A stretch of 47,462 bases of DNA from positions 2,629 through 50,090 of the forward strand of contig CAYIRC010000003.1 in assembly GCA_964365855.1 (NCBI GenBank), given 5' to 3'. A program made the position numbers and the translations under genes. This document shows, piece after piece, positions 414 through 42,160 of the stretch (positions are counted from its first letter, which is position 1; every line of letters starts with the position of its first letter). The DNA comes from Candidatus Woesearchaeota archaeon. Its GTDB lineage: Archaea > Nanobdellota > Nanobdellia > Pacearchaeales > GW2011-AR1. The notes below the pieces were generated by a model. It was not told the DNA's origin. It worked only from the letters and a program-made list of their open reading frames with translations, and searched no databases.

Positions 414-1046
414 CTATTTTATTTTTATGTATCTCTCTATCTTAAAAATGTCTTCATGGATTTTGCTGGAATCATAAGCATCATAATCCATATGCATTGC
501 ATTTTTATTCTTAAAAAGGGGCTTTTTCCCAAAAAAAACAATTCCAGCATTAGAAACTTTTCTTTGGCTTCCTTTGTAAAAGTCAATATCATGCCACCGT
601 TCTTCCAGCTCCCTATAAGTCAAATAAGCAATCAAAATCGTGCTGGGATCATTGAAATAAATTCTTTTATTATCATACCCCATAGCAACAACAAAATGCC
701 CGTCAGTCCACGATTTTTTCAAATCTTTCTCTCTTTTTTCAGGCCAGGCTTGAATTTGCAGAACTACAGGAATTTTTTTGTCGATATATCTCTTTAAATC
801 ACTAATTGTTAATCCGCTCCAGTAGCATTTATATTTTAAGCCCACTTTTTTTGCAACATTAATAAGCCCAAAAAAAGAGGTTCCAGTCTTGCCATGTGTT
901 TCAACTAATCTAATCATGTCTTTTTCGCTAATGTCCATTCCATAATAAGCCATAACTGAATGCATTGCACTTGCCCCGCAGTCATAATAAAAAGTTTGCC
1001 TAAAATTCGGGAAATCTATCAAACTTTTTAGTTTTACAGTTTTCAT
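414..1046 (-). CDS. C39-like cysteine peptidase
   Basis: RQTFYYDCG (Q..C), GHFVVAMGYD, FNDP catalytic-triad pattern. Confidence 0.85.
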   Translation of the reverse strand: MKTVKLKSLIDFPNFRQTFYYDCGASAMHSVMAYYGMDISEKDMIRLVETHGKTGTSFFGLINVAKKVGLKYKCYWSGLTISDLKRYIDKKIPVVLQIQAWPEKREKDLKKSWTDGHFVVAMGYDNKRIYFNDPSTILIAYLTYRELEERWHDIDFYKGSQRKVSNAGIVFFGKKPLFKNKNAMHMDYDAYDSSKIHEDIFKIERYIKIK

Positions 1047-1208
1047 ATTCCTCTCTTCTAAAAAAATAAATTAAAGAGGTTTATTAAGATATCGTTTTGC
1101 CAATCAAAAAAACTCTGATAAGTTTGTTAGTTTTTTGGATGCCTGAAAATCTCTGATTTTCCTGTGCTCATAACAAAGCCTTAAATATAAGAAAAAACTA
1201 AAATAAAA

Positions 1209-1721
1209 ATGATTGAAGGAAGATTTTCTGGTGAAAAAATACTGTCAAGTTCTCAAGATGCCTTTGCATTGTATGAAAAGTCAAGATTTGGTGAAAAAAA
1301 AGCAAAAAAAATTGAATATGCACCGGTCGAGGCTTTATTTTTGTTGTCAGAAGAAAAAATGAGAATAATTGCAGGTAAAAAAGAAATTTCTGAGGATGAA
1401 TTAATAAAAAAACTCAGAAGATTAGACAAAAAAATAGAAACAAAATTCCAGGTATTTAGCGATTTAAGGAAAAGAGGGTATATAGCTAAAACTGCCCTTA
1501 AGTTTGGAGCAGAATTCAGAATATATGAAAAAGGAGTGAAGCCTGGCGAAGACCACGCAAAATGGATTCTGTATACTGTAAAAGAAAATGATGCATTAAC
1601 TTGGCATGACTTTGCAGCTAAAAATCGTGTTGCCCATTCAACCCAAAAAAATCTTCTAATTGGAATAGTAGATGATGAAGGCGATGTCTCATACTATGAG
1701 ATATCCTGGTTAAGGCCGTAA
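1209..1721 (+). CDS. endA: tRNA-splicing endonuclease (single-unit type)
   Basis: VFSDLRKRGY..K...KFGAEFRIY, DHAKW, RVAHSTQK; Tyr-His-Lys triad present. Confidence 0.93.
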   Translation: MIEGRFSGEKILSSSQDAFALYEKSRFGEKKAKKIEYAPVEALFLLSEEKMRIIAGKKEISEDELIKKLRRLDKKIETKFQVFSDLRKRGYIAKTALKFGAEFRIYEKGVKPGEDHAKWILYTVKENDALTWHDFAAKNRVAHSTQKNLLIGIVDDEGDVSYYEISWLRP

Positions 1722-1762
1722 AATACAATAATATTTATAACATCAGCCTCTCTTCTAAAAAA

Positions 1763-2749
1763 ATGCCGGATATTCAAAAGTTGAATGAAAATAAAGAGAG
1801 GATAATAAGCAATCTTAGGATACGTGGCCCAAGTCTTCCAATTCATATTGCTCGCACGATAAGTGTAAGCCCGTTATTTGCTTCTGCATTTCTTTCAGAA
1901 TTATATGCTGAAGATAAAATAAAAATAAGTCATATAAGAGTAGGTAGTTCTCCTTTATATTTCCTATCAGGACAAGAGCCACTTTTAGAAAATTTTATTG
2001 AGTATCTAAACCATAAAGAAAAAGAAGCTTTTTCAGTTTTAAAGAAAAATTTAGTATTAGATGACAATGAGCAAGAGCCGGCAATTAGAGTAGCATTGAG
2101 AGCAATAAAAGATTTTGCAGTGCCGATAAAAGTAAAAATAAATGAAGAAAGTAAATTATTTTGGAAATATTTTCAGCTCTCTGACCAGGATGTAAAAGAA
2201 GAAATTCAAAAGATTTTGGCAGAGCCAAAAAAAGAAGAGATTAAAAAAATTAAATCAGAAGAAAAAATAGAGCCTAAAGAACCAGAAGTCAAGTTAAAAC
2301 TTGAAGAAAAATTGATTCCAGGACAGATTATAGAAAAATCACTGCAAGCTATTGAAAAAGAGTTCAGTGAGCAAGATAAAGAAAAAAAGGAATCTAAAGA
2401 AAAATTCGAGAAAAAGAAAAGACAAAAAGACAAAACATATGATTTTCCGTCCAATATCAAAGGTTATTTAACAGCAAAAGATATTGAAATATTAAGCTCA
2501 ATATTAGAGAAAAAGAAAGAATTTACTGCAAAAATCAGAATAGACACCCTCTTTGGAAAACAGGAATTCTATCTTATTGCAAAAGACAAGAAGAAAGTAA
2601 ATGAAGATGACTTAACTCTTGCGCTTCAAAGGGCGCAATCAGAAAAAATGCCTGCAATCTTTATGTCATCAGGCGAGCTTGATAAAAAAGCAAAAGAGTA
2701 TCTTTCTGGCTGGAGTAGTTTAATTAAATTTGAAAGAATAAAGTTCTGA
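1763..2749 (+). CDS. Hypothetical protein with N-terminal winged-helix-like region and charged linker
   Basis: GPSLPIHIA...FASAFLSEL...VGSSPLY wHTH-like pattern; 328-aa ORF. Confidence 0.6.
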   Translation: MPDIQKLNENKERIISNLRIRGPSLPIHIARTISVSPLFASAFLSELYAEDKIKISHIRVGSSPLYFLSGQEPLLENFIEYLNHKEKEAFSVLKKNLVLDDNEQEPAIRVALRAIKDFAVPIKVKINEESKLFWKYFQLSDQDVKEEIQKILAEPKKEEIKKIKSEEKIEPKEPEVKLKLEEKLIPGQIIEKSLQAIEKEFSEQDKEKKESKEKFEKKKRQKDKTYDFPSNIKGYLTAKDIEILSSILEKKKEFTAKIRIDTLFGKQEFYLIAKDKKKVNEDDLTLALQRAQSEKMPAIFMSSGELDKKAKEYLSGWSSLIKFERIKF

Positions 2750-2787
2750 TAAAAAGCTTTAAATAAGCAAAATTCGGCTCAATAACT

Positions 2788-2985
2788 ATGGGAAGAATAA
2801 AGTCAACAATGGTAAAGAAAGCAGCCAAGCAGCTGCTTCAGGGAGAGCATATTTTTACAAGTAGTTTTGACAAAAATAAAAGAGTATTAAACCAAACAAT
2901 GCCTAGCAAGCCAATAAGAAACAAAATAGCAGGCTATATAGCAAGATTAATGAGAGCACAGAAAGCTAAATCACAAAGTCCCTGA
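2788..2985 (+). CDS. rps17e: 30S ribosomal protein S17e
   Basis: MGRIK...VKK.A..L, F..NK, SKPIRNKIAGYI. Confidence 0.95.
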   Translation: MGRIKSTMVKKAAKQLLQGEHIFTSSFDKNKRVLNQTMPSKPIRNKIAGYIARLMRAQKAKSQSP

Positions 2986-3050
2986 ATTTGTCCGTGGACT
3001 TTGGTAGACAGAAAATTATGATTTTCTTGTGATCAAGTTCCTTGACATAA

Positions 3051-3275
3051 TTATCTCTTTTTGCTTAATTTAGTGTTTATTTCTTCAAGGAGTTCCCTAA
3101 TCTTTTTAATTTCACGCCTTTTTTTTCTGTTCCAAAATATGTTTATAATATTAAAAACTATGTAAGCAACAACCAAGCCTCCTATTGCTTGAAAAATAGT
3201 CATTAGCGTAGAAACTTGTGTTAAAATATCTTCAACATTAATGCTTGTTATATTGGGTATATTTTCTAATACCAT
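3051..3275 (-). CDS. Small single-TM protein
   Basis: Hydrophobic helix followed by basic amphipathic tail. Confidence 0.6.
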   Translation of the reverse strand: MVLENIPNITSINVEDILTQVSTLMTIFQAIGGLVVAYIVFNIINIFWNRKKRREIKKIRELLEEINTKLSKKR

Positions 3276-3367
3276 GAAAAGTCAAAGCAGGGCTTATTTT
3301 TAAAGCTTAAGATGCACCTTAAACCTCATTTCAAAACCCTTTTAAACCATCCGAAATTGGTATTTTC

Positions 3368-4003: not shown

Positions 4004-7000
4004 ATGAAAAAAGAGAAGGCGAGAAAGACAAAGTGGGTTCTTGCAGTTCAGGCAATAATTCTCATAGGATTCTTCATTTTGGCATTTGGCTTTTTATCAA
4101 CAAAAAAGCAAATATTGGGCTTTGTAGTCTACCAGTCCCAGCCATCGCCTGACGAGGGAAAAGATACATACATAAGGCAGAATTCAGACGTAAATTTCGG
4201 CACAGATACAACATTAAAAATTGGAAAAACTGCAACTGGAATTGAATTTAGGCCAATTCTGGAATTTAATCTGTCAGCAGTGCCTAACGGCGTAACAATA
4301 ACATCTGCAATTTTGCAGCTTTATACATGGTCAAGCACAGGCAATGCAACTACAGTAAAAGTTTATCGCTTGATTGAGCCATGGAATGAAACAGAAGCTG
4401 GCTGGAATAACAGAACATCATCCGACCTGTGGAATTATGGCTTTTCACCTGGTGGGAGGTATGATGAGTCTGAAATAACTTCTGTTCTTTTAAACCAAAC
4501 AGGATGGTATAATTTTACAATTTTAACAGTAGCAAGAGGATGGCTAAATACTTCATATAACAATTATGGAATTATATTAATTGCATCAAATGCAAACAAT
4601 GGAGACCAGAAAGAGTTTTACTCTTCCGACTACGTGACAGATTCTTCTTTAAGGCCAAAATTATACATAGATTACACAGAAAATGCTCCTCCATCAATTG
4701 AAAATATTCAGGTAAATTCGCTTTTGCCAACTCCTAAGAAAGTAGGTGAAAATGTCACATTCACAATATCATGGTCAGACCTTGAGTCAAACCAAGCAAA
4801 GTTATTTATTTGTAACTCATCATCAATCTCAACATCTAACTGTGCTGGCAGGCAGTTATGTAATGCTTCATTTTCATCAGTAAGTCCATTGTCATGCAAT
4901 TATACAATTGCAGCAACAGATAACAGGACAACTTCATTCTTCGCAGCAGTGTGCGATTTAGGAAATTGCTCATCAGCAAATGAGAGTTATTTTCAAATGA
5001 ATCACCTGCCAACTGTAAATCTTGTCCAGCCAAATTCAGCAGGTATAACAATTAACCAGTCGCAGGGCAGTTATCCTGTTCAGTTTATTATTGCAGATTC
5101 TGATTCAGACTTGGTGAATGCAAGTATTTACTATGGCATAACGCAATATTCAACAAATTCTATTGTTATTGAAAATATAAATACTTCTGCAACAACAACT
5201 TATTTTTGGAACTCAACAGGAATCTACGGGACGTATTATCTTACAATTATAATAAATGATACCTATCACACAAATAATGATACTTCAGACAATTCATTTC
5301 AGGTTGTAAGTTTGACAGACAATATTCCTCCAAATATAACTGCACAATGGATTACAGACTCTTATGTTTATTCAGGAAAATCAATTCAGATCTATGCAAA
5401 TGTTTCAGACCCAAACTTAAGAGCTGTGTGGGTTTCAGTCAATATAACCCCCCAACAAAACATTACAATGACAAATTTAACATCAGCAACTTTTAATGCA
5501 ACATTCACCGCGCCAGCCCCTGCAACATATTCTTTCAAAGTTTATGCAAATGATACAATTGGAAATTTTAATAATTCAATGCCCTGGAATAAATTCAATG
5601 TCACAAAGCCATCTGCAGCAAGCCAGAATATAACTGCCCCCGCAGCAACGCTTCCTTTCCATGTCATAAAAGTGACTGCAGAACTTAATGCCACAGATTC
5701 ATTAAGGGATATTTATGCTTATCTTAATATTCCAAATGGTTTCACATTCTTAACAGACTACTCTCAAAATTCTTATCTCGGAAATTTTTCCACAAATGAA
5801 ACCAAAACAGCAACCTGGTTTTTATCAGCACCAATTACAGAAAGCTCTTATAAATTAAATGTGTCTTATACAGATAAATATTCAAATTCATGGAATAGCT
5901 CAAATGCAAATATTTCAATTACTTCTGCAATTGGTGGCGGTTATGCTCTCTCTGTTTCAGGCTACCCTGAAGTTGAAACAGCGCGTAATTATTATGCAGA
6001 AGCTTCATTTATGCAATCAGGATTATATGCAGCTCCTGATTCAGTTTATTTGACAATAAAAGACTCAACAGGAACCATAGTCGTAGGTCCTGTTGCAATG
6101 TCGCAAAAATCAACAGGCATATATAATTATACATATTCTGTCGGCTCTTCTGTTAATGAAGGTTTATGGGAAACAATTGTAAATGCAACAAAATCTTCAA
6201 CAAGTTATTATGCAAACCAGTTCTGGAAAGTTGTTGGCGGCCCATTTGATGTTCGTAATATTGTAGTCAACGACAATACAGTTCCTTTATTGAGCATATC
6301 TGTAACAGCAGAAAATACAGGCGGTGCTAATAAAGACCTGTACTTAACCTGGAATCTTACAAGAACAGACAATAACGCACTTCTTCATTCAGGCGCAGAT
6401 ACAATTGGGGTAAATGCTAGTTCACAAAGAGTATGGACAATATCTCCCCAAACATCTTATGTCGGGCAGGTAAAAATAACTTTCTTGGGAACCTATTCTG
6501 GAACAGAAAAAGCAGGGGCATACGCAATATTCAGTACAACATCTGCTTCAAATGAAACCTCGGTGACACCGTCAGTAACTTCTGGGGGAGGTGGAGCATC
6601 AGTTGTAAATGTAACAAAGCTGGGGAAAAGATCAGATTTTGAAATAAAAGCAGATTCGCAGATATTTCTCACAAAAAATATTGAAAAATCAGTTCAGGTT
6701 GAAATAACCAACACAGGTGAAAAAGAGCTTACAAACATTGAGCTCAAGCTGGCAGGGCTTGAAAAAACAGAATATACTATTACTCCCCAATCACAAAGCT
6801 CATTGCAAAAAGGAAAGACATTAATATTTAATGTAAAAATCATAATTACAGACTGGATTGGCGAAAAAGATTTTACTTATATCGTTAAAGCAAATGAACT
6901 AACAAAATCCTTGCCGGGAAAAATTATAGTCCTTACAATGAGCGAATATTTCCAGCAGGAATTAGCCAGGCTGAAACAGGCTGCGGAAGATTTAAAAGGA

Positions 7001-7384
7001 AAAATTGGCAGTGATGAAAAGCTGTTAGCCCAATTAAACGTATGCGGGGATATTATAAACACTCTTGAAAATAATATAGAAAAAGAGCAATTTATTTACG
7101 CATTAAGCAATGTAAAAGATGCAGATAAATGCTTGTCTGAAATTAAAATAAAAGGAAAAATTATCAGTAGCATCTACAAAAATATTTGGCTGATAATTGG
7201 AATAATTGCAGCTTTAATCATGCTTGTTTCAGTAATCATAATAATCTATCTAATATACAAGAAGCTTAACATATTGGCATTTTTCAGGAATCAGGAGCAA
7301 AAAAAATCAGCTGATAAAAGCTCATTGAAAGATAAATACTTCGACGAGAAAATCAAGCAAATCGAAGACAAATTAAAAGAATAG
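4004..7384 (+). CDS. Membrane-anchored surface glycoprotein with DNRLRE/CBM96-like N-terminal domain and Ig-like repeats
   Basis: N-terminal TM, DTYIRQ...NFG...RPILEFNLS...RPKLYIDY, many N-x-S/T sequons, SGGGG linker, C-terminal TM. Confidence 0.8.
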   Translation: MKKEKARKTKWVLAVQAIILIGFFILAFGFLSTKKQILGFVVYQSQPSPDEGKDTYIRQNSDVNFGTDTTLKIGKTATGIEFRPILEFNLSAVPNGVTITSAILQLYTWSSTGNATTVKVYRLIEPWNETEAGWNNRTSSDLWNYGFSPGGRYDESEITSVLLNQTGWYNFTILTVARGWLNTSYNNYGIILIASNANNGDQKEFYSSDYVTDSSLRPKLYIDYTENAPPSIENIQVNSLLPTPKKVGENVTFTISWSDLESNQAKLFICNSSSISTSNCAGRQLCNASFSSVSPLSCNYTIAATDNRTTSFFAAVCDLGNCSSANESYFQMNHLPTVNLVQPNSAGITINQSQGSYPVQFIIADSDSDLVNASIYYGITQYSTNSIVIENINTSATTTYFWNSTGIYGTYYLTIIINDTYHTNNDTSDNSFQVVSLTDNIPPNITAQWITDSYVYSGKSIQIYANVSDPNLRAVWVSVNITPQQNITMTNLTSATFNATFTAPAPATYSFKVYANDTIGNFNNSMPWNKFNVTKPSAASQNITAPAATLPFHVIKVTAELNATDSLRDIYAYLNIPNGFTFLTDYSQNSYLGNFSTNETKTATWFLSAPITESSYKLNVSYTDKYSNSWNSSNANISITSAIGGGYALSVSGYPEVETARNYYAEASFMQSGLYAAPDSVYLTIKDSTGTIVVGPVAMSQKSTGIYNYTYSVGSSVNEGLWETIVNATKSSTSYYANQFWKVVGGPFDVRNIVVNDNTVPLLSISVTAENTGGANKDLYLTWNLTRTDNNALLHSGADTIGVNASSQRVWTISPQTSYVGQVKITFLGTYSGTEKAGAYAIFSTTSASNETSVTPSVTSGGGGASVVNVTKLGKRSDFEIKADSQIFLTKNIEKSVQVEITNTGEKELTNIELKLAGLEKTEYTITPQSQSSLQKGKTLIFNVKIIITDWIGEKDFTYIVKANELTKSLPGKIIVLTMSEYFQQELARLKQAAEDLKGKIGSDEKLLAQLNVCGDIINTLENNIEKEQFIYALSNVKDADKCLSEIKIKGKIISSIYKNIWLIIGIIAALIMLVSVIIIIYLIYKKLNILAFFRNQEQKKSADKSSLKDKYFDEKIKQIEDKLKE

Positions 7385-7411
7385 ACTTATCCAGTATAAG
7401 GCAAATGGGTT

Positions 7412-7669
7412 ATGAAGCTCTATTCTGGAAGGCTGACTGATTTCAGGGATATAACTGCATTGGCAAAAGATGCTAATCTTGAAATAATACGGAAGTTTTT
7501 ATTTATCGGCAATCAAGAAGTTTTGAATAAAAATTTCAAGAGACTTGAAAAAGCAGTCAAGGATAAAAATTTCATAGATTCATTTAAAGGTGTGTTTATA
7601 GAAAAGAAATTTGACATTGATATGAAGCAGGTTGAGAAGATTAGCAGGTTGAGAAAATTTGCTAAATAA
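7412..7669 (+). pseudogene. C-terminal fragment of an AbiEii/DUF6036-like nucleotidyltransferase
   Basis: Starts at MKLYSGRLTDFRDI (K....R..D..D motif that is normally internal); no room upstream for the N-terminal part. Confidence 0.55.
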
Positions 7670-7749
7670 ACCTCTTCGCAACAGGCTGCGGAGCATAATG
7701 ATTAATCAAAAAAGATTAGGAGATGGAAATTCTAATCGCCCTTAACTTA

Positions 7750-7790
7750 TAGCAACTGACTTTAATATTTCCTCAGACTGTCAGTTGCTA
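7750..7790. repeat. TA-flanked 41-bp hairpin related to the MITE's left hairpin
   Basis: TAGCAACTGAC-N19-GTCAGTTGCTA perfect stem; loop shares TTAATATTTC..CAG with the MITE. Confidence 0.75.
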
Positions 7791-7861
7791 TATTCGAGAG
7801 AACAAAAAGGAGAAAGGAGATATTTTGGTCTCTCGTTATAGCAGTTCAATTATTTTTATTG

Positions 7862-7949
7862 CTCCAATTGGGTCTAATACCCCGTAGCTTGCTGCGATAT
7901 TTTTTCGTTCCCAATTGGAGGCTTAAAGAATACCTCCTAGCTTGCTGTG
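7862..7949. repeat. REP/IS200-IS605-end-like palindrome cluster
   Basis: ATACCCCGTAGCTTGCTGCG and ATACCTCCTAGCTTGCTGTG, the first enclosed by CTCCAATTGGG/CCCAATTGGAG; related copy at 46166-46192. Confidence 0.6.
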
Positions 7950-9719
7950 ATTGGATTCTTTATTTTTCTTTGCCAAATGCACACCTTGCTTTTTTTCTTT
8001 ATGTTTTATTTCAGGCAGTGCATGTTTTGGCTTGTGCTTATGGTGATGAATTATATTTTTTTTATTCGCAATGTTTTTGTATTCAAATTTAGGTTTTAAA
8101 TAAGCAAAAGATTTTTCAACTTCTTCAATAGGCCATCCCTGTTTTAATAAAGGCTCTTTTATCTCATAATCATCAAACCCTCTTTTGCGCGCCTCTCTGA
8201 TAAATTCAACAACTCCTTTATTTGGCTTTTTGGCTTTTTGCTCATTCTTATTGCCTTTTATTTTTTTATTCGCAATGTTTTTATGCTCGCGGACTTCAGG
8301 GCTCTTGTGCTCCTGCTTATAACTAAATTTTTTATGAAAATGCTTTTCTAAAGGTTTTTTAATTATTTTACTCTCTTCTTCGTTTTTGGCTTTGGCGCTA
8401 TTATAAGTAATATCTGCTTCAATTTCAGCGCTGGATTTGTCAGCAGCCCTGGCAACTTCAATCTCTTTCAAGCTCTGCTCAATTTGCTCATTTCCTTTTC
8501 CAGAATTATCCTGAATTCTTTTTACATTTTCATGCACCTCTGGCTGGCTTGTCTCAAGCGGTTTTGAGACTTTAGGGTTAACCTCAAGATTTTGCAATTT
8601 GAGCTTATTGTCATTATCAATCATTTTCCTTGCTTTTACAGAAATTTTTCCTTTTATGCCAACCTTTGCTTTTATCTCTGTAATCTGTCCTGCAAGCGCG
8701 TCCAATATTCCCAGGATGGAGTTTAATCTATTGTCATAATCGCTGACTTTTTTTATATGGTCGTCCCCAATGCTGATTGCAAGGTCTGCAATATCTCGTT
8801 TATTCTGCTGGGAAATTCCAAGAATAGTTTCAATAATTCTTCCAAGCCGCTCATTCTCATCCCTTAATCTTTCAACAGAGTTCAAAATCATCTCAAAATT
8901 GACAAACCTTTCACCAATTCTTTTCTTAAAATCATTAAAATCATTTTGGTTTACAATATTGCTAAAGTCAACTTTAAATTTTTCAACTTCTTTTACCATT
9001 CCAGAATAATTTGCATCAAGCATCTTTACAAGCTCGTGTATCTTTTGGCTCTCTGCAACTCCTCTTTTCATCTCAGAAAATAGCTGCTCTGTCTTGTCAG
9101 AATACATTCTCGATTTCGTCGCCATTTGCTGCGCCCCAAGCAATTCGCTTTTTACATCCTGGTTTAGTTTTATCAGTTCAGCTGTTCCAAGAAAAGTCCC
9201 CATCTTGCTCCTTATTTCCTTTAGCTCTCTCATAACAACATCCATAAACTGCTTGTTCGACTCTATCTTTTCGCTTAATGCCTCAACCTTCATTTCAACT
9301 TTCTGGAAATCAATCCTTAATTTTTCCGGCTCAACTTCGCTGACAATATCAATTGCCCGTGCAGATTCAACTTCGATTTTTGAAATTGCCTTTTCATTCG
9401 AGATATTCATCCCTCTTAATTCACCAACCTGCTGGCTTAATGCGCCCATTCTCTCATTATATCCTTTAATCAGCTCATTCATAGACTCAAGTCTTGAAAA
9501 TACCTTTTCAAATTCAAGCATTGTTCTTTCACTGCTTGCAGAATAACTTTCAGATTTTAATTTTCCCTTGCCCTTTTTTTTGCCAGATTTCCCAATATCT
9601 TCTTCTATGTCATCATTCTCAAAATCAGTCTGCTCTGGCTCTGGAATTTCAGTGCTGATTGCTTCCTTCCCCACATCAGGCGGAATATCTTCTTTTTTCT
9701 TTTTAAAAAATTCAAACAT
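7923..9719 (-). CDS. Long coiled-coil protein with low-complexity charged tail
   Basis: Heptad-rich aa ~65-350; start codon overlaps the giant gene's stop (TAATG). Confidence 0.75.
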   Translation of the reverse strand: MFEFFKKKKEDIPPDVGKEAISTEIPEPEQTDFENDDIEEDIGKSGKKKGKGKLKSESYSASSERTMLEFEKVFSRLESMNELIKGYNERMGALSQQVGELRGMNISNEKAISKIEVESARAIDIVSEVEPEKLRIDFQKVEMKVEALSEKIESNKQFMDVVMRELKEIRSKMGTFLGTAELIKLNQDVKSELLGAQQMATKSRMYSDKTEQLFSEMKRGVAESQKIHELVKMLDANYSGMVKEVEKFKVDFSNIVNQNDFNDFKKRIGERFVNFEMILNSVERLRDENERLGRIIETILGISQQNKRDIADLAISIGDDHIKKVSDYDNRLNSILGILDALAGQITEIKAKVGIKGKISVKARKMIDNDNKLKLQNLEVNPKVSKPLETSQPEVHENVKRIQDNSGKGNEQIEQSLKEIEVARAADKSSAEIEADITYNSAKAKNEEESKIIKKPLEKHFHKKFSYKQEHKSPEVREHKNIANKKIKGNKNEQKAKKPNKGVVEFIREARKRGFDDYEIKEPLLKQGWPIEEVEKSFAYLKPKFEYKNIANKKNIIHHHKHKPKHALPEIKHKEKKQGVHLAKKNKESNHSKLGGIL

Positions 9720-12700
9720 TATAACTTGTCAACCTCTTTTTTAAGTTCCTCAATTTCCTGTTGAACTCCTTCTGCATCTTTCCTGTCAACTTTTTTTATC
9801 CCTTTTAATCTGTTCTGCAGGTCACTGAATTTATTTTCAACATTTGCTGTATTCTTGCTCTTTTTCTTGTCTGCAATCGCTCTCTTTATTTTATCAAGCT
9901 CTTCAGATATTGATATTTTTACTTCGGGATTTTTCTTTATATATTCTGCTCTTTCTTTCTCAGCCTCGCTGATTGCTTTTTCAACTTCAGACTTTTCAAC
10001 TTTCTTTGCTACAAAATGCCTTACTCTCTTTCCAAGTTTCTTCCATGCATCATCAAACTTAGGAGTCAAAGACTCAAGATACATATCAGCCATCTGAAAC
10101 TGTCCGGACTTGATTTTTGATTTTGCAAGCTTCAGCTCAAGCTCAAGGTCAAGTACATCAACTTTCTCTTTCTTTAATTCCTCAACCTGATAATCCAAAT
10201 CCTCAACAATATCAAAATATTTCTCATAATTCTTCAATTCATTATTGCTTAATCTCCTAGTGCTGTGCAATAATGGCCTGAAAGCAATAAAATATGGCTT
10301 CCCTAAATTAAATTCTGCATTAACAACCATTCCAGTTCCAATCGGCTCTTTGACAACTGATTTCAAAATATCTTCTCCATATTTCATATTAACTCTTTCC
10401 AAATCACCCTCATACCTTGTTCCCATCTGCACTTCAGTTCCAATGTTTGCCTTAATTTCTCCAACAAAATCGCTTAATACTTGCGAGATTAATACCAATC
10501 CAATTCCCCACTTTCTGAATTCTCTTGCTCCTCTTTCAAGCTGAATAAAGCCCTGTCCCGTCCCACCGAACTTTGGCAATAATCTGTGAACTTCATCATA
10601 AACAATCAATGTCTTAAGCTCTTTATTTTCATCCGGCTCTGACTTGAATATCTGGTCAATTGTGCTTGCTACAACAATGTCAATTTCTTTAGGCGTTAAA
10701 TGGCTTATATTAAATACAGTAATTTCACCCGGCCTGTTCATATATTTCTTTATGTCAATCATTTCATATGGGTCATGTATTGTCTTTATGCTTCCATCAA
10801 ATGCCCTTGCTTCTCCTGTCTTCATGTCAAAGAAGCCATATCTCTTTAACATTCCAGAATCCTCGCACTTTCTCAAAAACCCGGTCCACTGTGCAGTTGG
10901 GTCAAATACAATAACGCTCTTCTTATTTACAAGCGCTGCCTCAATAATATCCTGCGCAGCAACTGTCTTTCCGCTTCCTGTTGAGCCTGCAACAAAAGTA
11001 TGCATCTGGAGTTTATTCAAATCTATAAATGCCCTTATGCCTGTTTCTGCAACTTTGCCGACAAATGCAGAATTAGGCCCTGCCTGCGGCAGCTTATTAA
11101 ATTCAACTTTCATCCTGAATCTTCGCTTCTGCCATTCAATATATCTCAAATAATAAAATGCACCAACTATCAGTCCAATTATAAGCAGTGCAACTAAATA
11201 TATCCAAAGTTCAATTCCAACTATGCGCATTTTGAAAATAGAGTAATTTACATTTACATATGCAATTGAACTTGCCTGCTGGTTTTCTTCTTCCAAGCTG
11301 GAGTAATAAGCAGTTCCTTTAAGAAGATATTTCCCAAGAGGGGTGTCACTAGGAACTTTAAATTCCTTAATCATGCTTGTTGATGTTTCAACTGCAAATG
11401 CTTCTTCTTGCCTCCCGACCAATGCGCCTGTTTCAGCATCAAGCATTTGCATGTCAAACTGAACATCAATTCTCTTTGTCTTTCCTAAGTTAAGCAAGTC
11501 TAACTGATATCTTAATACATCCCCAGGTGCAACCCTTTCCTGCAATGGTTGTATCTTAACATCAAGCAATTTTCCTTCAGGCGATAGAACTTTAATTGTA
11601 ACAGGAATTTCACCTTGCTTGTCTCCTGACTTGAATAAAATTGTCCCGTCATATTCAGTTGGCTTCTGGAACTTTGGTATTACAATCTTTACCAATACAT
11701 CTCTTATTTCATTTGGCTCGAGCTCAATTGTTGATGTTTCAAAAAAGATAAATGGTTGTATGTCTCCTGTTGCTTCAAGAGACATAATACTCTTTGAATT
11801 CAAGGTATTAACAAACTTCATCCTAAATGAAGATGAGTCTCCTGCAAATAGTTCCTTGTAAATAGAAGTTATCTCAACCTTGATTCCAGCTATATTTACA
11901 CTGCTCTTGATTAAGTTCTCTATCTTTGACAAATCCCCGCTTCCTAATCCTCCTCCACCGCCAGAGCTTGAAGCAGGCAGACTAACAGTAAGTGTTGGGC
12001 AGTCATTTGAACATGTCGATGTAGTTTCTCCATATGTTGTTTCACACAACCCATTTCCACACTTTTTTTCAGCAAGGAAATAAGAGCTAAATCCAGTTGA
12101 ATTTCCTGTAACCTGCTTTGTGTCTCTGTCAATTGAAGATACTATCGCGCTCCATCCACCATTGCATTTTCTCAATGAATAATTCCAGTCAGCGCATTTT
12201 ACAACCGCAAGCTGGCTTGCTTCATCATAACTATATCCTGTATAGTTAAATATAACATTAACAGTATTTGTGCTCAGATTAGTTGAATTCAAAGATATTC
12301 CAATAAATGGCTTGTACAGTGAGATTACTTCAGCAAGGTCATTGCCATTCATTTTATGCATATTTAATGAAATTCCTGAATTAGTAATATTTGTTAAATT
12401 AACATTTCTGACAATAACTTTATCTCCTGAAATCAGGGCATGCAGGTCATAATTCATCTTATTGACAGAAAGTGTTGTTCTCCCATCACTTCCGGTTATG
12501 TTATTAACTAAAACATTTGTCTTATTCAGTCTTGCTAAGCTTATATTTACCCCGGCAACAGGGTTATTATTGTAATCAATCATTATCAAAGCCCAGTTGT
12601 ACCTGTCATAAACTTCAAACCAGTCTTCAGTTGTATTTACATTTCCAGTTGTGTCATTTGCACTGTAATTCACAATGTATTCTCCAGCACTGTTTAAAAT

Positions 12701-37201: not shown

Positions 37202-37954
37202 TTATCTGATAAGCAATAATACAATCATCAATACAATACCCAATATAAATGATGCTAGTTCTAATACAGACTCAAGTGTTTGATTTTCCTTATGCAACTC
37301 AGGAATTAGGTCGCTTCCAGCAATATAAATAAATCCTCCGGCTGCAATTGGAAGCAATATGTCGCTTAAATTATTCATAGGCCCGCTGATTACTATAGCA
37401 ACAACTGCCCCAAGAACTGCTAAAAGTCCGAATAAAAAGTTAAAAACCAGGGCTCTCTTTTTAGTAAATCCTCCTCGTATAAGCACGCAGAACTCGCCTG
37501 CTTCCTGGGGTATTTCATGAAAAGCCACTGCAAGAGTAGTTGCAATCCCTAAAGGAAGGCTGGCAATATAACTAGCAGCTATTATCATCCCATCTATGAA
37601 ATTATGCAATCCATCTCCAACTAAATTCATATATGCAAAAGCATGCACATGCTCGTTAGTTACAGGCCTATGGCAATGCCTCCAATGAATAAACTTCTCA
37701 AGAATAAAAAATATCAAAATCCCAAATAACAAAAACAAAGAAATGCTTAAAGTAAAACCCTGTTTTTTAGTTGCTTCTGGAAGAATATGCAAAAAAGCAT
37801 CTCCAAATAAAGCTCCTGTAGAAAAGCTGACAAAATAAAGAAGCAATTTATTAAATGTAGCAGACTTTACAACAAAGCTAAAAAGTCCTATAAAAGATAT
37901 CAGGCTGATTAGCAAAACACTAATTAATGAATAAAGCCAGATATTATACAACAT
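37202..37954 (-). CDS. ZIP-family metal transporter
   Basis: HWRHCH, GDGLHNFIDG, HEIPQE, LIPELH. Confidence 0.95.
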   Translation of the reverse strand: MLYNIWLYSLISVLLISLISFIGLFSFVVKSATFNKLLLYFVSFSTGALFGDAFLHILPEATKKQGFTLSISLFLLFGILIFFILEKFIHWRHCHRPVTNEHVHAFAYMNLVGDGLHNFIDGMIIAASYIASLPLGIATTLAVAFHEIPQEAGEFCVLIRGGFTKKRALVFNFLFGLLAVLGAVVAIVISGPMNNLSDILLPIAAGGFIYIAGSDLIPELHKENQTLESVLELASFILGIVLMIVLLLIR

Positions 37955-37978
37955 TTCTAGAAGAAATTAAAAGTCTTT

Positions 37979-38236
37979 TTAAAGATTATGTGCATGCTTT
38001 GAAAGTCCTTTAGGATTCAAGCGCTTTATAACTATATAATATACTAAAGCTCCAACCCAGCTAGTAATTGCTATAATAACTATCCAAATAATTTTCTCAA
38101 GGTCATTCTTGAAATTCCTCTTAGCGCAATCGACAATCATCCAAATCCAAAACGCAAAAACAAATATTATCAAAGCAATCATAGTAAATACTAAAACCAG
38201 TGCAAATGGAAAAAACCAAAATTGTCGCATTGCCAT
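37979..38236 (-). CDS. PLDc_N-like small membrane protein
   Basis: FWIWMIVDC.KR....K..W......VGALVYY. Confidence 0.75.
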   Translation of the reverse strand: MAMRQFWFFPFALVLVFTMIALIIFVFAFWIWMIVDCAKRNFKNDLEKIIWIVIIAITSWVGALVYYIVIKRLNPKGLSKHAHNL

Positions 38237-38273
38237 AATTCAATAATGCCTTTAATCTTTTTAAATTAATCGT

Positions 38274-38384
38274 TCATTTTATCAGCTTTCCAGCCTTCTC
38301 AAACTCTATTTCAGAATTAAGCAGCTTTCTCAAAACATCTTTGAGCTCATTCACCTTAACCCGTATTTGTTTTGTTGTATCTCT
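38274..38384 (-). pseudogene. Orphan second copy of the glyS 3' end (36 codons + stop)
   Basis: [36 protein letters not shown] aligns with GlyRS RDNTIQIRVKIKDLKEIIRK...KFGKVV. Confidence 0.85.
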
Positions 38385-38428
38385 ATAACTACAGGAATAC
38401 TTAAATAGTAAAACATATTAATGATTTA

Positions 38429-39349
38429 ATGAAGATAGATAAAGAATTAGTAAAGGGTGTTGCTTATTATATCGGAGATGGAAGAAGTTCTGCACCAAGA
38501 AGTTTATCAACGGTTAATCAAAATGTAGAAACTATAAAGTTTTTTATAAAATGGCTTAGAAAATATTTTGATATACCGCTAAAGAAGATAAAAATAGGAA
38601 TAAAAATGAATACTCCAAATTTTTATGAGGATGATATAAGAAAAGAATTTAGCAAAAAATTAAAAATAAAAGAGAAATTTATATTCTCTGTCTCGATTAA
38701 AGATAAAGCGAAAGAACACCATAAGATAGTAACCGAAATCTGGGCACATAACAGTAAAGCAAAAAGAACTTACGATAAGCTTGTCCCAATTGTAAAGAGA
38801 AAATGCTTAAAAAATAGAAGATTGGCAATAGAATATGTCAAAGGAATAATGGCTGCAGAAGGTTCTCCAAAATATGATATAAAGAGTGGAAGTAGAAATG
38901 TCCATCTTAAAATGAAAAATGAAAATGAAATAAAATATATAGGAAAACTTCTAAATGAGATAATAGGCATAAAATCAAGTGTTTTAAGAATAAGAACAGA
39001 AGAAGGAATGTGGTTGATAACAATAAGTGGTTTTTATGAATTAAATAAATTAAAGGATCTGGATATTTTTGAAATAGAAAGCGAAAAGAGAAAAAAATTT
39101 ATAAAAATTGTTGGCTCCTATAAAAGAGCTCAAGTAAAGAAAGGAGATGTGAACAGATTTTATATAGAAAAATTAAAATTTTATAATGAAAGATACAATA
39201 AAAGGATTACTGCTCCAGAATTAGCTAAAATTATAGGAAGGGATAGAACAAGAATAGTTAATGTACTAAGGCAATTAGAAAAGAAAGGGCTAATCCAAAG
39301 TCAGAGAAGAAAAACTATTGGAAGGCCTTTTGAGTTTTGGGTAAGATAG
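38429..39349 (+). CDS. Free-standing two-motif LAGLIDADG endonuclease with C-terminal wHTH
   Basis: VAYYIGDG and YVKGIMAAEGS motifs; TAPELAK....R..I...LRQLEKKGLI. Confidence 0.85.
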   Translation: MKIDKELVKGVAYYIGDGRSSAPRSLSTVNQNVETIKFFIKWLRKYFDIPLKKIKIGIKMNTPNFYEDDIRKEFSKKLKIKEKFIFSVSIKDKAKEHHKIVTEIWAHNSKAKRTYDKLVPIVKRKCLKNRRLAIEYVKGIMAAEGSPKYDIKSGSRNVHLKMKNENEIKYIGKLLNEIIGIKSSVLRIRTEEGMWLITISGFYELNKLKDLDIFEIESEKRKKFIKIVGSYKRAQVKKGDVNRFYIEKLKFYNERYNKRITAPELAKIIGRDRTRIVNVLRQLEKKGLIQSQRRKTIGRPFEFWVR

Positions 39350-39351
39350 GA

Positions 39352-40836
39352 TTAATCTTTTTTTCTTGTATTAACTACCTTTCCAAATTTTAATATATCT
39401 TCTCCTTCTATACCCTTTCTTATTATTTCTTTTAAATCCTTTATTTTAACTCTAATCTGAATAGTGTTATCTCTTAACCTAATAGTTACAGATTTGTCAT
39501 TCAAAGAATCAGAATCAATTGTTATGCAAAATGGCGTTCCTTGTTCATCAGCCCGAGAATAGCGTCGCCCCACACTTCCTGAAGAATCATAAATAACCAT
39601 AAATTCTTTTTTTAGTTCATGATAAATTTCCCTAGCTATCTTCTCCATTGATTTATCATTAATCAACGGAAAAACAGCTGCTTTGACCGGTGCAAGATTA
39701 AAAGGCAAGTGTAAAATAATATTTTCTCTCTCTTTGTTATACTCATAGGCCTCTACTAGCAAAGCAAGAAAAACTCTTTCCATTCCAAATGTAGGCTCTA
39801 TAACTCTCGGAATAACATTTTTCTTTGTTTTCTCATCAAACACAGCCAGATTTTGCTTGCTTTCTTTAATATGCTGGTTCAAATCATACTGCCCTCTGTT
39901 AGCATTGCCTGCAACTTCTTTGCTTCCAAACGGATATTCATAATCAATATCAAAAGTAGCTGATGAATAAAAAGAAAGTTCTTCTTTTGTATGCTCTCTT
40001 ATTTTAATTCTTGTTAATCCTAAAGAATAAAACCATAAAATTTGTTCTGCAAGCCAGTAAGCATGCCATTCATCTAGTCTTTTTTCTCTAAGCATCTTTC
40101 CTATTGATGTTTCCTTAACTTCATCTTTGCCGGCTTTTTGAGTTTCAGCGTCCAAAAGTTTTAATTTAACATCCAAATGGGTTTTATCTAAAATAGAGCA
40201 TTTATGTTCATCAGGATGGATAAAAAATTCAAACTCCCCTATCGTAAATTCTCTACTTCTAAATAAAAAATCTCTTGGAGCAATCTCATTTCTAAAACAT
40301 TTTCCAACCTGAGCAATACCAAAAGGAAGCTGAAGCCTTGATGTTTCCTGGACCAGCTTAAAATCCATAAACATTGCTTGAGCAGTTTCACCTCTTAAGT
40401 AAGCATCCTCTGCATTCAAAGCTCCAACCTTTGTCTTAAACAATAGATTAAATTCACCCCAAGTGATAAATTCACCACCGCACTCGCATCTAATTTTTCC
40501 AACTTCAGATTTATCAATTTTTATAGCTTTCTTGCATTTCTTGCATATAACTGCCACATCAGAAAATCCAGTTAAATGCCCAGAAGCTTTCCACGTTTTT
40601 GGATGAGAGATAATGCTGGCATCAATGCCAGCCATATTCTCCTTTTGTTGTACAAAATAATTCCACCAATTTCTTTTAAGATTACTAAATAGCTCTACCC
40701 CCAAAGGCCCAAAATCCCAAAATCCTGCAAATCCGCCATATATTTCAGAACTTCTAAAAACAAATCCCTTTCTTTTGCAAAAAGTAGCCAGTTCATCAAT
40801 TGTTAGCTTTTTTTCACTTTTGTCTTTATTTTCCAT
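39352..40836 (-). CDS. glyS: Glycine--tRNA ligase (alpha2 type)
   Basis: IYGG..G.WDFGPLG, YLRGETAQ, FRNEIAPR.FLFRSREF, VIEPTFG.ER, anticodon-binding domain. Confidence 0.96.
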   Translation of the reverse strand: MENKDKSEKKLTIDELATFCKRKGFVFRSSEIYGGFAGFWDFGPLGVELFSNLKRNWWNYFVQQKENMAGIDASIISHPKTWKASGHLTGFSDVAVICKKCKKAIKIDKSEVGKIRCECGGEFITWGEFNLLFKTKVGALNAEDAYLRGETAQAMFMDFKLVQETSRLQLPFGIAQVGKCFRNEIAPRDFLFRSREFTIGEFEFFIHPDEHKCSILDKTHLDVKLKLLDAETQKAGKDEVKETSIGKMLREKRLDEWHAYWLAEQILWFYSLGLTRIKIREHTKEELSFYSSATFDIDYEYPFGSKEVAGNANRGQYDLNQHIKESKQNLAVFDEKTKKNVIPRVIEPTFGMERVFLALLVEAYEYNKERENIILHLPFNLAPVKAAVFPLINDKSMEKIAREIYHELKKEFMVIYDSSGSVGRRYSRADEQGTPFCITIDSDSLNDKSVTIRLRDNTIQIRVKIKDLKEIIRKGIEGEDILKFGKVVNTRKKD

Positions 40837-40912
40837 ATTTTCTATTTAACTTTGTTAGTTTTCAATCATTTTGCTAATAAAACCCTTTTCCAAATACAAA
40901 TCAATATCCATT

Positions 40913-40976
40913 AAAATACCATAATTCTGGTATTTTTATATTTTTTTAATTAAACAAATACCATAAAATTGGTATT
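40913..40976. promoter_or_regulatory. Twin palindromic operators
   Basis: AATACCA-N6-TGGTATT twice (within 40913-40936 and at 40957-40976). Confidence 0.6.
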
Positions 40977-41097
40977 AAAATCCTAGAATCTCTTTAGCTT
41001 TTTTTTCAGTATAAAATTCCCCCTTCTTTATTCTTTCCCTTGCTTCAAGTATTTCTTTAATAACTTCCTCACTAAGCTTCAATTTCTTCTTATTCAT
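40975..41097 (-). CDS. 40-aa antitoxin-like peptide (not in ORF track)
   Basis: MNKKKLKLSEEVIKEILEARERIKKGEFYTEKKAKEILGF resembles C-termini of archaeal RelB-like antitoxins. Confidence 0.5.
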   Translation of the reverse strand: MNKKKLKLSEEVIKEILEARERIKKGEFYTEKKAKEILGF

Positions 41098-41145
41098 TTT
41101 CCTAAAAAATATAATTAAAGAGTAAAATAAAAAAATAAAATTAGT

Positions 41146-41295
41146 TTACTTTATTCCGCCCATTCTGCAAACAGTTGTGTTGCAATGAGGGCATTTGCCT
41201 TTTGCAATCTTAGTCCCTTTTACAGTCTTAGACTCAACAGGGTCTTTCATATCAACTTGTTTCTTGCATTTCACACAATATCCTTTTGTTGCCAT
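41146..41295 (-). CDS. 49-aa zinc-ribbon protein, DUF5679-like (not in ORF track)
   Basis: MATKGYCVKCKK.V.MKDP....KGKCPHC.T.VCR; AGGAGGT SD. Confidence 0.85.
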   Translation of the reverse strand: MATKGYCVKCKKQVDMKDPVESKTVKGTKIAKGKCPHCNTTVCRMGGIK

Positions 41296-41352
41296 GTTTA
41301 CCTCCTTATAATAATTTTAAATGAAATTTAGCTTTTATAAATGTATAGATTA

Positions 41353-41425
41353 AGCGCGGACCCGGATTCGAACCGGGGAAAAGCCGGGCTGCAGCCGACC
41401 GCAGTAACCACTGTGCCATCCGCGC
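41353..41425 (-). tRNA. tRNA-Cys(GCA)
   Basis: Cloverleaf with GTCGG-CT-GCA-GC-CCGGC and U73. Confidence 0.93.
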
Positions 41426-41462
41426 ATAAAATATCAAGAGAAATTGAATCTTTTAAACCTTG

Positions 41463-42160
41463 TTAAACTCTTTTTCCAACCTTATTAATCTTATTTCCAG
41501 CAATAGCCAGAGCTTCTCCATCTCTAAGCTCGAAAACAGGATAATCAACCTTTTCTCTGAATTCCTTTACTTCATTTTTTAACTTGAGCTTATAATGCGG
41601 AAAAACAGCAATATCTGTTAGTCCTAAACCTCTTAAATCTTTGAGCCCGATATCATTTGAATCTGCTTCACTGCCCCAGCCCGCTATTTTAACATCTTTG
41701 CCTGCAATTATGCTTCCTGCGCTTATGCCAATGAAAACTCCCCCCTTGTTGGCAAATTTTTTTATCATTTTGTCAATCCCAAGTTTCCTAAGCCTATCAA
41801 GAATATAATAAGTGCTTCCGCCCAGCAGATAAATAACATCAATATCATTGCTCAAATTTTTGATTGATTTGTTCCTGCATATATTAAAATTAACGATGTT
41901 TTTTATATTGAATCCGATATCAATTATAGTCAAGGACATTAATATTTCTGCAGTTTGTCGTTGACTAGATAGGGAAAGACTTATGTCTTTCACTATAATT
42001 CTTCTATAACTGACTTTATCCATCCCCTTTCTTCTTCATCTTCTGCGCTGTCAATCACTAGAATCCGGCTTTCAGAAACAGGCTTATTAAGAAGCCTGTA
42101 AAATGCCTGCTTGATTTTTTCAGAATCCAGCCCGCTTGAAGTAAGAAGCAATTTTTTCAT
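41463..42160 (-). pseudogene. Peptidase E (S51) gene disrupted by MITE
   Basis: MKKLLLTSSGL.. from 42160 stops at a TAG in the MITE end; downstream part has GG.T, G.SAG, FPHY; removing 71 bp restores ..VIEELIDIGF.. Confidence 0.88.
41927..41995. mobile_element. 69-bp MITE-like element, copy 2, with TA target duplication
   Basis: Identical to 3826-3894; TA at 41925-41926 and 41996-41997. Confidence 0.9.

Follow-up and report, generated by a model that had tools for sequence, protein, structure and literature searches.

The DNA analysed here (the window, a stretch of 47,462 nucleotides whose positions serve as coordinates throughout) contains, at the 3' end of the glycyl-tRNA synthetase (GlyRS) gene glyS, a segment of about 1.09 kb (∼38388-39477) that is very probably a homing cassette, in which a free-standing LAGLIDADG endonuclease gene, probably driven by a promoter within the cassette, is joined on the opposite strand by a duplicate of the final 40 glyS codons. 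The cassette would have supplied glyS with a new 3' end and displaced the native one, which lies beyond the endonuclease gene as an orphan fragment; comparable 3'-end-replacing elements are known from fungal mitochondria, and the glyS cassette would be a variant of these. The source genome (G000; 0.79 Mb, 85% complete) carries the endonuclease open reading frame in a single copy, and G and L codes denote relative genomes and loci, respectively. The components of the locus are as follows.

39352-40836, minus strand: the whole of glyS, 494 residues, with a class II core (Pfam tRNA-synt_2b and HGTP_anticodon).
39478-40836, minus strand: the glyS body, GlyRS residues 1-453, host-derived (open reading frame and Pfam).
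39475-39477, minus strand: the junction codon TTA (Leu454), the putative first codon of the cassette and a candidate immunity change.
39352-39474, minus strand: the cassette-borne glyS tail, residues 455-494 and the stop codon, in frame with the body.
38429-39349, plus strand: the free-standing endonuclease gene, 306 residues, with a C-terminal winged helix at residues ∼257-295.
38388-38428, plus strand: the end of the cassette with a probable endonuclease promoter (41 bp from the orphan to the ATG; TATA-like run at 38400-38408).
38274-38387, minus strand: the orphan native glyS tail, comprising 36 codons and a stop (38274-38384) and a preceding TAT codon (38385-38387), with no start codon.
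37979-38236, minus strand: a host gene for a PLDc_N membrane protein, downstream of the orphan (Pfam).

The synthetase encoded by this composite gene has a complete HGTP_anticodon domain (residues 385-474, profile positions 1-93 of 94 in Pfam), which is completed by the current tail, itself matching a profile of GlyRS tails at E 9e-17. The body is 75% identical to that of an endonuclease-free sister, G009, with which it is grouped at an SH-aLRT support of 96. The orphan aligns to residues 455-488 of the GlyRS of the window (BLASTP, 16 of 35 positions identical, E 4e-7) and matches the profile built from 30 GlyRS tails at E 8e-20, a similarity far above chance, and it has diverged from the current tail to 45% amino acid identity, with 41 of 72 nucleotides identical over the first 24 codons. 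Its frame runs into an in-frame stop 11 codons upstream, with no ATG, GTG or TTG between, and no open reading frame of 30 or more residues is listed at 38274-38384. The stops of the endonuclease gene and glyS are 2 bp apart on opposite strands, and the two genes are thus convergent. A reading of the window made from its letters only (the original prediction) had proposed a start-less 36-codon GlyRS C-terminus with its own stop, diverged from the active one, and an endonuclease gene convergent with glyS, and each of these features is borne out. In a second sample from the study that yielded this genome, contigs (X2 records 11 and 13) span both junctions with zero differences, so that the layout is not an assembly chimera.

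The same layout recurs across the endonuclease family. The survey covered 60 relatives together with scans of genome and metagenome contigs, which gave 21 more loci, and the removal of near-duplicates (L048-L050, L051 and L054; L021 is the same as L035) left 18 distinct endonuclease loci, which were compared with 27 glyS loci that are free of the endonuclease. Two of the 60 relatives have a homologue at the glyS 3' end, full-length in G012 and decayed in G017. A convergent glyS, at a gap of -41 to +6 bp, is present at all 19 collection loci with DNA past the endonuclease 3' end (the other 2 of the 21 end at the endonuclease), and also in G000, G012 and the decayed copy of G017. Furthermore, when the profile of 30 GlyRS tails is run against all six frames, 13 of the 18 distinct loci prove to have another tail copy, on the same strand as glyS and immediately past the endonuclease 5' end: six orphans are strong (the window, L035, L040, L041, L042 and L055; E ≤ 2e-13) and seven are weaker (L039, L043, L045, L046, L047, L052 and L053; E 1.5e-5 to 1.1e-2). 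None of the 27 endonuclease-free loci has a second copy, the best second match having E ≥ 0.7, and the family profile detects no endonuclease remnant there at E < 0.6. With the exception of the partial L039 match, the orphans begin at profile positions 1-8, at or just after the Arg-x-Arg-Asp codons. The site specificity of the insertion is family-wide. The original prediction that the element had replaced the 3' end of glyS gains support from these orphans at the same codons, and from the transfer of tail and endonuclease as one discrete block in relatives described below.

The hosts of the endonuclease loci are archaeal genomes whose GlyRS bodies are only 36-75% identical, and the genes behind the orphan vary by locus (PLDc_N-ZIP, ZIP-HIT, HIT, ParA or an M16-like gene); in endonuclease-free relatives glyS is mostly followed directly by HIT. 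The PLDc_N-ZIP pair (ZIP being a transporter) follows glyS itself in the endonuclease-free G009 and follows the orphan in L042, so that, to judge from gene order, PLDc_N and the ZIP transporter mark the original downstream neighbourhood of glyS. The endonuclease reading frame is intact in most loci, and several stages of decay are seen in others: G017 keeps only a C-terminal remnant with a stop, L038/L054 are without the endonuclease N-terminus, and the N-terminal extension of L045 is broken. The TATA-like run at 38400-38408 lies ∼25 nt ahead of the endonuclease ATG in the window, and a similar A/T box stands at the same offset beside the orphan in L035, L040, L041, L042 and L055. By the general features of archaeal promoters, this run probably acts as the endonuclease promoter, and its spacing would suit a leaderless archaeal transcript. 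Apparent decayed orphans in the endonuclease-free loci L012, L025 and L033 (E 0.7-3.9; tblastn E 0.005) were rejected, as they proved to be a small Lys-rich gene (∼50-75 residues) that follows glyS there (L012, 3059-3215; L025, two copies; L033, about 3120-3300). Its resemblance to a weak GlyRS-tail match makes it a possible source of false orphans.

The codons at the insertion point carry a signature of their own. Endonuclease-free alleles have Arg-Asp-Arg-Asp at the site, usually encoded by a tandem AGAGAT-like hexamer. The original prediction placed the insertion between Arg and Arg-Asp in the anticodon-binding domain, and the domain stands; the point itself is more likely one codon upstream, at Arg^Asp-Arg-Asp (^ marking the insertion), because the five other short-form orphans keep GAT or GAC ahead of Arg-Asp. 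In the window orphan this position is the TAT codon, which may be a relic of the native Asp codon, and the tandem hexamer leaves an ambiguity of 6 nt in the exact point. Also significant is the residue at the junction: the Asp codon is replaced in all 15 distinct endonuclease-bearing alleles (Trp in 6, Leu in 4, Ser in 3 and His in 2), compared with Asp in 21, Glu in 3, Asn in 2 and Ile in 1 of the 27 free alleles, and all five phylogenetically independent pairs agree in the direction of the change. The pattern of substitution is consistent with an immunity change in the middle of the target, by which the cassette-bearing allele would resist its own endonuclease.

If the orphan is the native tail, it should resemble the C-termini of element-free relatives, as the original prediction had it. 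This is true of its best matches, which are tails of endonuclease-free relatives, with 29 of 36 residues identical (81%, G014) followed by 78%, 74% and 72%, compared with 68% for the best match of the current tail to any free relative. Over the whole set the outcome is mostly favourable but mixed, 15 of the 27 free tails being nearer to the orphan, 10 nearer to the current tail and 2 tied. The relationship is clearer in relatives. The orphans of L041 and L040 are 83% and 73% identical, respectively, to the tail of the endonuclease-free sister lineage L007 (body 77-82%) and only 50-52% identical to their own current tails (50% for L041), and the L007 tail is 58% identical to the current tail of L041. 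The intact 36-codon frame of the window orphan is the main argument for a fairly recent displacement. A division of the tails into a native type A and an element-borne type B, tried as a marker of the element, was dropped: type B-like sequences turned up as orphans in L040-L042, and the tails borne by the long-form elements are type A-like.

That the tail and the endonuclease gene travel together, separately from the rest of glyS, is seen directly in relatives. Between the metagenome contigs L040 and L041 the glyS body differs at 200 of 1200 nt (28, 18 and 154 at the three codon positions) and the orphans at 23 of 120 nt (5, 4 and 14), compared with 3 of 123 nt in the current tails and 29 of 918 nt in the endonuclease genes. 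A sliding window delimits a block of ∼1.1 kb at 93-100% identity, which extends from the orphan junction to the Arg-x-Arg-Asp junction; outside this block identity falls to ∼80-85% in the glyS body and vanishes altogether downstream of the orphan. Taken as a whole, the block is 97% identical between the two contigs, compared with differences of 17-19% in body and orphan. The third-position bias of the differences between the two orphans indicates that these diverged as functional tails in two host lineages, before their displacement. The long-form clade shows the same discordance, the identities of body, tail and endonuclease being 51, 78 and 84% for L043-L053, 53, 78 and 80% for L046-L053, and 44, 68 and 64% for L036-L053. 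Base composition is also informative. In L036, a metagenome-assembled genome (MAG) labelled Hadesarchaea, and in L044, the endonuclease gene, the glyS tail and ∼100 nt upstream have a GC content of 26-40% between flanks of 55-65%, and these islands would be the product of cross-lineage transfer from an AT-rich donor. In one such host the block has 30% GC in a genome of 58% GC. The AT-rich islands lie at about 3700-5150 in L036 and about 360-1800 in L044, and an orphan was not detected in either.

Tail and endonuclease act as a single discrete unit of transfer in relatives, where the history of the element is discordant with that of its flanks; this evidence comes from the relatives and not from the window copy. 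A tree of GlyRS bodies (42 rows) requires at least eight changes in the presence of the endonuclease, five of them forced by well-supported branches, and places the window glyS as sister to that of G009, which is endonuclease-free.

The mechanism proposed from these observations is as follows. The endonuclease would cut an endonuclease-free glyS at the conserved Arg-Asp-Arg-Asp coding site in the anticodon-binding domain, an activity that the window copy may still possess, and the break would be repaired from a cassette-bearing copy, the glyS body serving as left arm of homology and the orphan tail of the donor as right arm. The recipient would gain the body, the imported tail and the endonuclease gene, and its own tail would be pushed downstream as a new orphan, GlyRS remaining full length throughout. 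Because the right arm lies inside the target gene, such a cassette would need no conserved synteny downstream, which fits the varied genes found behind the orphans. In the imported allele the central Asp codon of the site would at the same time be exchanged (for Leu in the window), which should block re-cutting, and decay of the cassette would then follow, as in G017, L038/L054 and L045.

The nature of the 306-residue protein was assessed by several routes. It has 23 homologues in a large protein collection, and in the alignment of all 24 proteins Gly10, Tyr13, Gly16, Asp17, Gly18, Tyr136, Gly139, Ala142, Ala143 and Glu144 are invariant and Gly145 nearly so. These positions define two LAGLIDADG-type motifs, each with an acidic residue (Gly-Asp-Gly at 16-18 with Asp17, and Ala-Ala-Glu at 142-144 with Glu144). 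The LAGLIDADG_3 profile (PF14528) is matched by 14 of the 24 family proteins (best E 1.6e-8), and LAGLIDADG_WhiA is matched weakly by 5 of the 24; the long-form relative L046 matches LAGLIDADG_3 at E 3.7e-5. A comparison by hhalign of the family profile with an intein-type LAGLIDADG domain from the same genome extends over 188 columns and both motifs (E 2.6e-5, probability 75%). The ESM Atlas model of the exact window protein (predicted template-modelling score, pTM, 0.73) has as structural neighbours a LAGLIDADG_3 plus helix-turn-helix (HTH) cluster at a template-modelling (TM) score of 0.80, LAGLIDADG_3 clusters at 0.52-0.67 and WhiA clusters at 0.52-0.55 (∼205 residues). In the window protein itself Pfam finds only winged HTH families, at residues ∼257-295, and none of the LAGLIDADG profiles PF14528, PF00961 and PF03161 is matched at E ≤ 1. 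The LAGLIDADG identity given in the original prediction is only partly shown for the window protein itself, for which it is supported by the family alignment, the 14 matching homologues, the profile comparison and the predicted-structure neighbours. On this basis the protein is taken to be a LAGLIDADG enzyme of the monomeric, double-motif type that also bears a winged helix, with a predicted nuclease activity.

The glyS endonucleases of the long-form clade (L036, L037, L043-L047, L052 and L053) have an extra N-terminal stretch of ∼110 residues. Orphans in this clade comprise ∼24 codons with their own stop and are mutually conserved, and the next host gene follows directly in L046 and L053. A match to the endonuclease in G060 (E 0.0025, residues 238-290) involves the HTH part only, on a contig different from that of glyS, and was not counted. 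LAGLIDADG_3 matches as such are common, being present in 39 of 61 genomes of the archaeal family with up to 27 per genome. In G000 there are eight (six above the cut-off), on contigs C21, C1, C2, C27 and C12 (loci L056-L063), all within five long open frames of 805-1357 residues that are probably inteins in large proteins.

Several observations weigh against the homing interpretation and have to be set beside this evidence. The population at the site was checked in assembled contigs, among which there is no clear empty-site glyS allele of this organism. A lone X1 contig joins position 38386, where the orphan starts, to position 39764 within the glyS body, so that 1377 bases are passed over, and one side of the joint measures 26 letters; this joint probably comes from another organism, and is possibly the uninterrupted glyS of a relative whose tail aligns to the orphan and not to the current tail. 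Depth peaks inside glyS likewise correspond to conserved stretches of other organisms. Five of the 18 distinct loci (L034, L036, L037, L038 and L044) have no orphan, and the ten free tails that are closer to the current tail of the window than to its orphan are joined by that of the closest relative, G009, which is equidistant (60% to each). The sign test on the junction residue, with only five independent pairs, gives p = 0.0625, the lowest value reachable with that number. The window protein is without a Pfam LAGLIDADG_3 match at E ≤ 1, and a sequence-profile search of the PDB gives zero hits. Finally, the window has no clear GC island (26-29% versus 31-37%), and in the short-form clade the identities of endonuclease, tail and body are about equal (63-70%), which also fits a long vertical residence, so that a recent transfer of the window copy is unsupported.

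This last observation bears on the possibility that the cassette did home into glyS but is now a vertically inherited passenger in the window, either immobile or domesticated as a WhiA-like DNA-binding protein acting on glyS or its neighbours. In the short-form clade endonuclease and GlyRS body have diverged to a similar extent, the protein is close to the WhiA clusters in architecture and predicted structure, five of the family proteins weakly match the LAGLIDADG_WhiA profile, and most loci retain an unbroken reading frame, an unusual state for a gene that is purely selfish and has reached fixation. WhiA, however, has lost the acidic residues of the LAGLIDADG motifs, whereas Asp17 and Glu144 are invariant in all 24 homologues of the window protein. 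Sister lineages are without the endonuclease gene, recent transfer is demonstrated within the same endonuclease family, and a window orphan that is still an open frame of 36 codons, 81% identical to a functional tail, is hard to square with an ancient insertion followed by neutral decay. A passenger of this kind is accordingly considered unlikely, and a homing cassette remains the preferred account of the window copy.

Nor does a purely local origin explain the locus well. In such a scheme the glyS 3' end would have undergone a tandem duplication or rearrangement, an unrelated endonuclease gene landing in the spacer later; the tandem hexamer of the Arg-Asp-Arg-Asp codons could favour slippage, and the order of events cannot be read from the window alone. 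A duplication predicts tails of the same lineage, however, and the two tails observed differ at 55% of amino acid positions, the orphan being 81% identical to a tail from another genus. Moreover, all 13 distinct loci with this geometry have an endonuclease of this family, none of the 27 endonuclease-free loci shows it, and the tails of L040/L041 and L036 share their history and base composition with the endonuclease and not with the body, all of which makes a local duplication highly improbable. The fragment is still less probably the attachment-site scar of an integrase-type element or provirus, in spite of a shared logic of restored gene end and displaced native end (as in prophage e14 at icd and islands at tRNA genes, which restore the 3' end of the target gene), since the block is ∼1.09 kb with a single open reading frame in which Pfam finds only a winged HTH (LAGLIDADG in the family) and no integrase or recombinase domain, the host genes PLDc_N and ZIP directly follow the orphan, and the high-identity block of L040/L041 stops at both tail junctions.

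The glyS homing cassette is most closely paralleled by the mobile open reading frames (mORFs) of fungal mitochondria, as the original prediction had suggested, and the comparison is apt (PMC3630166). The mORFs with a foreign C-terminus occur in atp6 of Allomyces macrogynus, in atp6, atp9, cox2 and nad3 of Glomus sp., and in cob and atp6 of Endoconidiophora resinifera, the displaced native segment is closer to near relatives than the inserted one, and the discordance has led to the inference of horizontal transfer (PMC3630166; PMC6279837). Judged against these descriptions, the order of gene core, inserted C-terminus, endonuclease open reading frame (LAGLIDADG or GIY-YIG in the fungal case) and native remnant is shared by the window and by 13 of the 18 distinct loci, and the native remnant is again nearer to the genes of relatives than the inserted C-terminus is (81% versus 68% in the window, with the tie at G009). 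In contrast to the fungal elements, which sit in respiratory genes of an organelle and are encoded on the same strand as their target, often in phase with it, the glyS cassette resides in an archaeal chromosome within the gene for a cytosolic aminoacyl-tRNA synthetase, and its endonuclease gene is antisense with its own putative promoter, 3' end to 3' end with glyS, at an overlap of at most 41 bp in relatives. The C-terminal winged helix is a further difference from the fungal elements as they are described there, as is the association of one endonuclease family with one site across hosts whose GlyRS bodies are 36-75% identical.

Intron-less homing in phages offers a second comparison. The endonucleases of the T4 seg and mob genes and of cyanophage (F-CphI) are free-standing beside their target and cut within a conserved gene of genomes that have no endonuclease; markers on either side are co-converted, and differences in sequence make the donor allele immune. 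The glyS endonuclease gene similarly is free-standing and adjoins its target. The phage elements are intergenic, however, and leave no orphan because both of their flanks are syntenic, whereas the glyS cassette brings its own gene end and can rely on the displaced tail for homology on the right side.

Two further groups of proteins invite comparison. The glyS endonuclease shares its nuclease superfamily and its kind of host with the enzymes of archaeal inteins and group I introns, including the rRNA introns of Woesearchaeota and other DPANN, and LAGLIDADG open reading frames are reported in archaeal rRNA group I introns (PMC6125680). Unlike these, the cassette has no splicing element: glyS ends at its own stop and the endonuclease gene is antisense to it, and an Rfam search (E ≤ 1) of positions 36900-41600 returned two tRNAs only and no group I intron. 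The two tRNA genes, at 36982-37053 and 41353-41425 on the minus strand, flank the wider region. WhiA, the bacterial transcription factor derived from a LAGLIDADG protein, likewise has two LAGLIDADG-like domains followed by an HTH; the glyS endonuclease differs in having kept the acidic motif residues, and its gene is patchily distributed, moves in relatives and keeps to a single insertion site. No archaeal, bacterial-chromosome or aminoacyl-tRNA synthetase case of 3'-end replacement was found in the literature searched, which lay mainly outside subscription journals and excluded supplements.

Free-standing homing endonuclease genes are generally limited to intergenic sites, since insertion within a gene would destroy it, according to a 2026 account (PMC13619312). 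By means of a replacement gene end the glyS family would evade this limit in an archaeal chromosome, a solution documented earlier in fungal mitochondria. The family also offers a natural, conserved target of ∼20 bp in an essential aminoacyl-tRNA synthetase gene together with a set of presumably very specific nucleases, and cycles of invasion could be traced through its orphan tails, which amount to datable scars. A glyS 3' end, and probably that of gatD as well, can have a history unlike that of the rest of the gene, a point of consequence for the use of both genes in phylogenetics as markers. Recent DNA exchange and recombination among DPANN lineages that cannot yet be grown is evidenced by the identity blocks and GC islands.

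It is tempting to extend this reading to the free-standing LAGLIDADG plus HTH endonucleases of DPANN archaea in general, which could use cassettes that bring their own gene end to invade essential genes without an intron or intein, glyS being the best-sampled target and gatD and nth further ones, and which could move between deeply diverged lineages, even into the GC-rich MAG labelled Hadesarchaea. This generalization is tentative, and its correctness at present somewhat doubtful. If it is true, housekeeping genes have been made chimeric, and their sequences document directly how uncultured, host-dependent archaea exchange DNA and recombine it homologously.

The extension was approached by a generic scan for tail duplicates at 24 other free-standing LAGLIDADG_3 loci of the same archaeal family, in which all five glyS positive controls were recovered and 21 of the 24 loci gave no such signal. 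As leads only, gatD looks like a second target of the gene-end-replacing strategy, and nth is a possible third. At L092 (G064:C5), gatD (Asparaginase and GatD_N domains; 1872-3194, minus strand) is convergent, at a gap of 2 bp, with a LAGLIDADG_3 gene of 398 residues (676-1869, plus strand), and a short duplicate of the GatD tail lies beyond the endonuclease 5' end at about 568-633 on the minus strand (E 7e-4). By eye, this gatD orphan is far more like the corresponding tail in the nearest GatD without an endonuclease than like the current tail of its own locus. At L093 (G076:C15), the endonuclease III-type gene nth (HhH-GPD; 825-1457, plus strand) overlaps by 11 bp with a convergent LAGLIDADG_3 gene of 339 residues (1447-2463, minus strand), and a weak duplicate of the nth tail is present at 2506-2556 on the plus strand (E 2e-3). 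In G017 (C5, about 5999-10066; L034 and L143), glyS and gatD are convergent neighbours, between which lie the decayed remnant of the glyS endonuclease and, by eye, an apparent tRNA gene.

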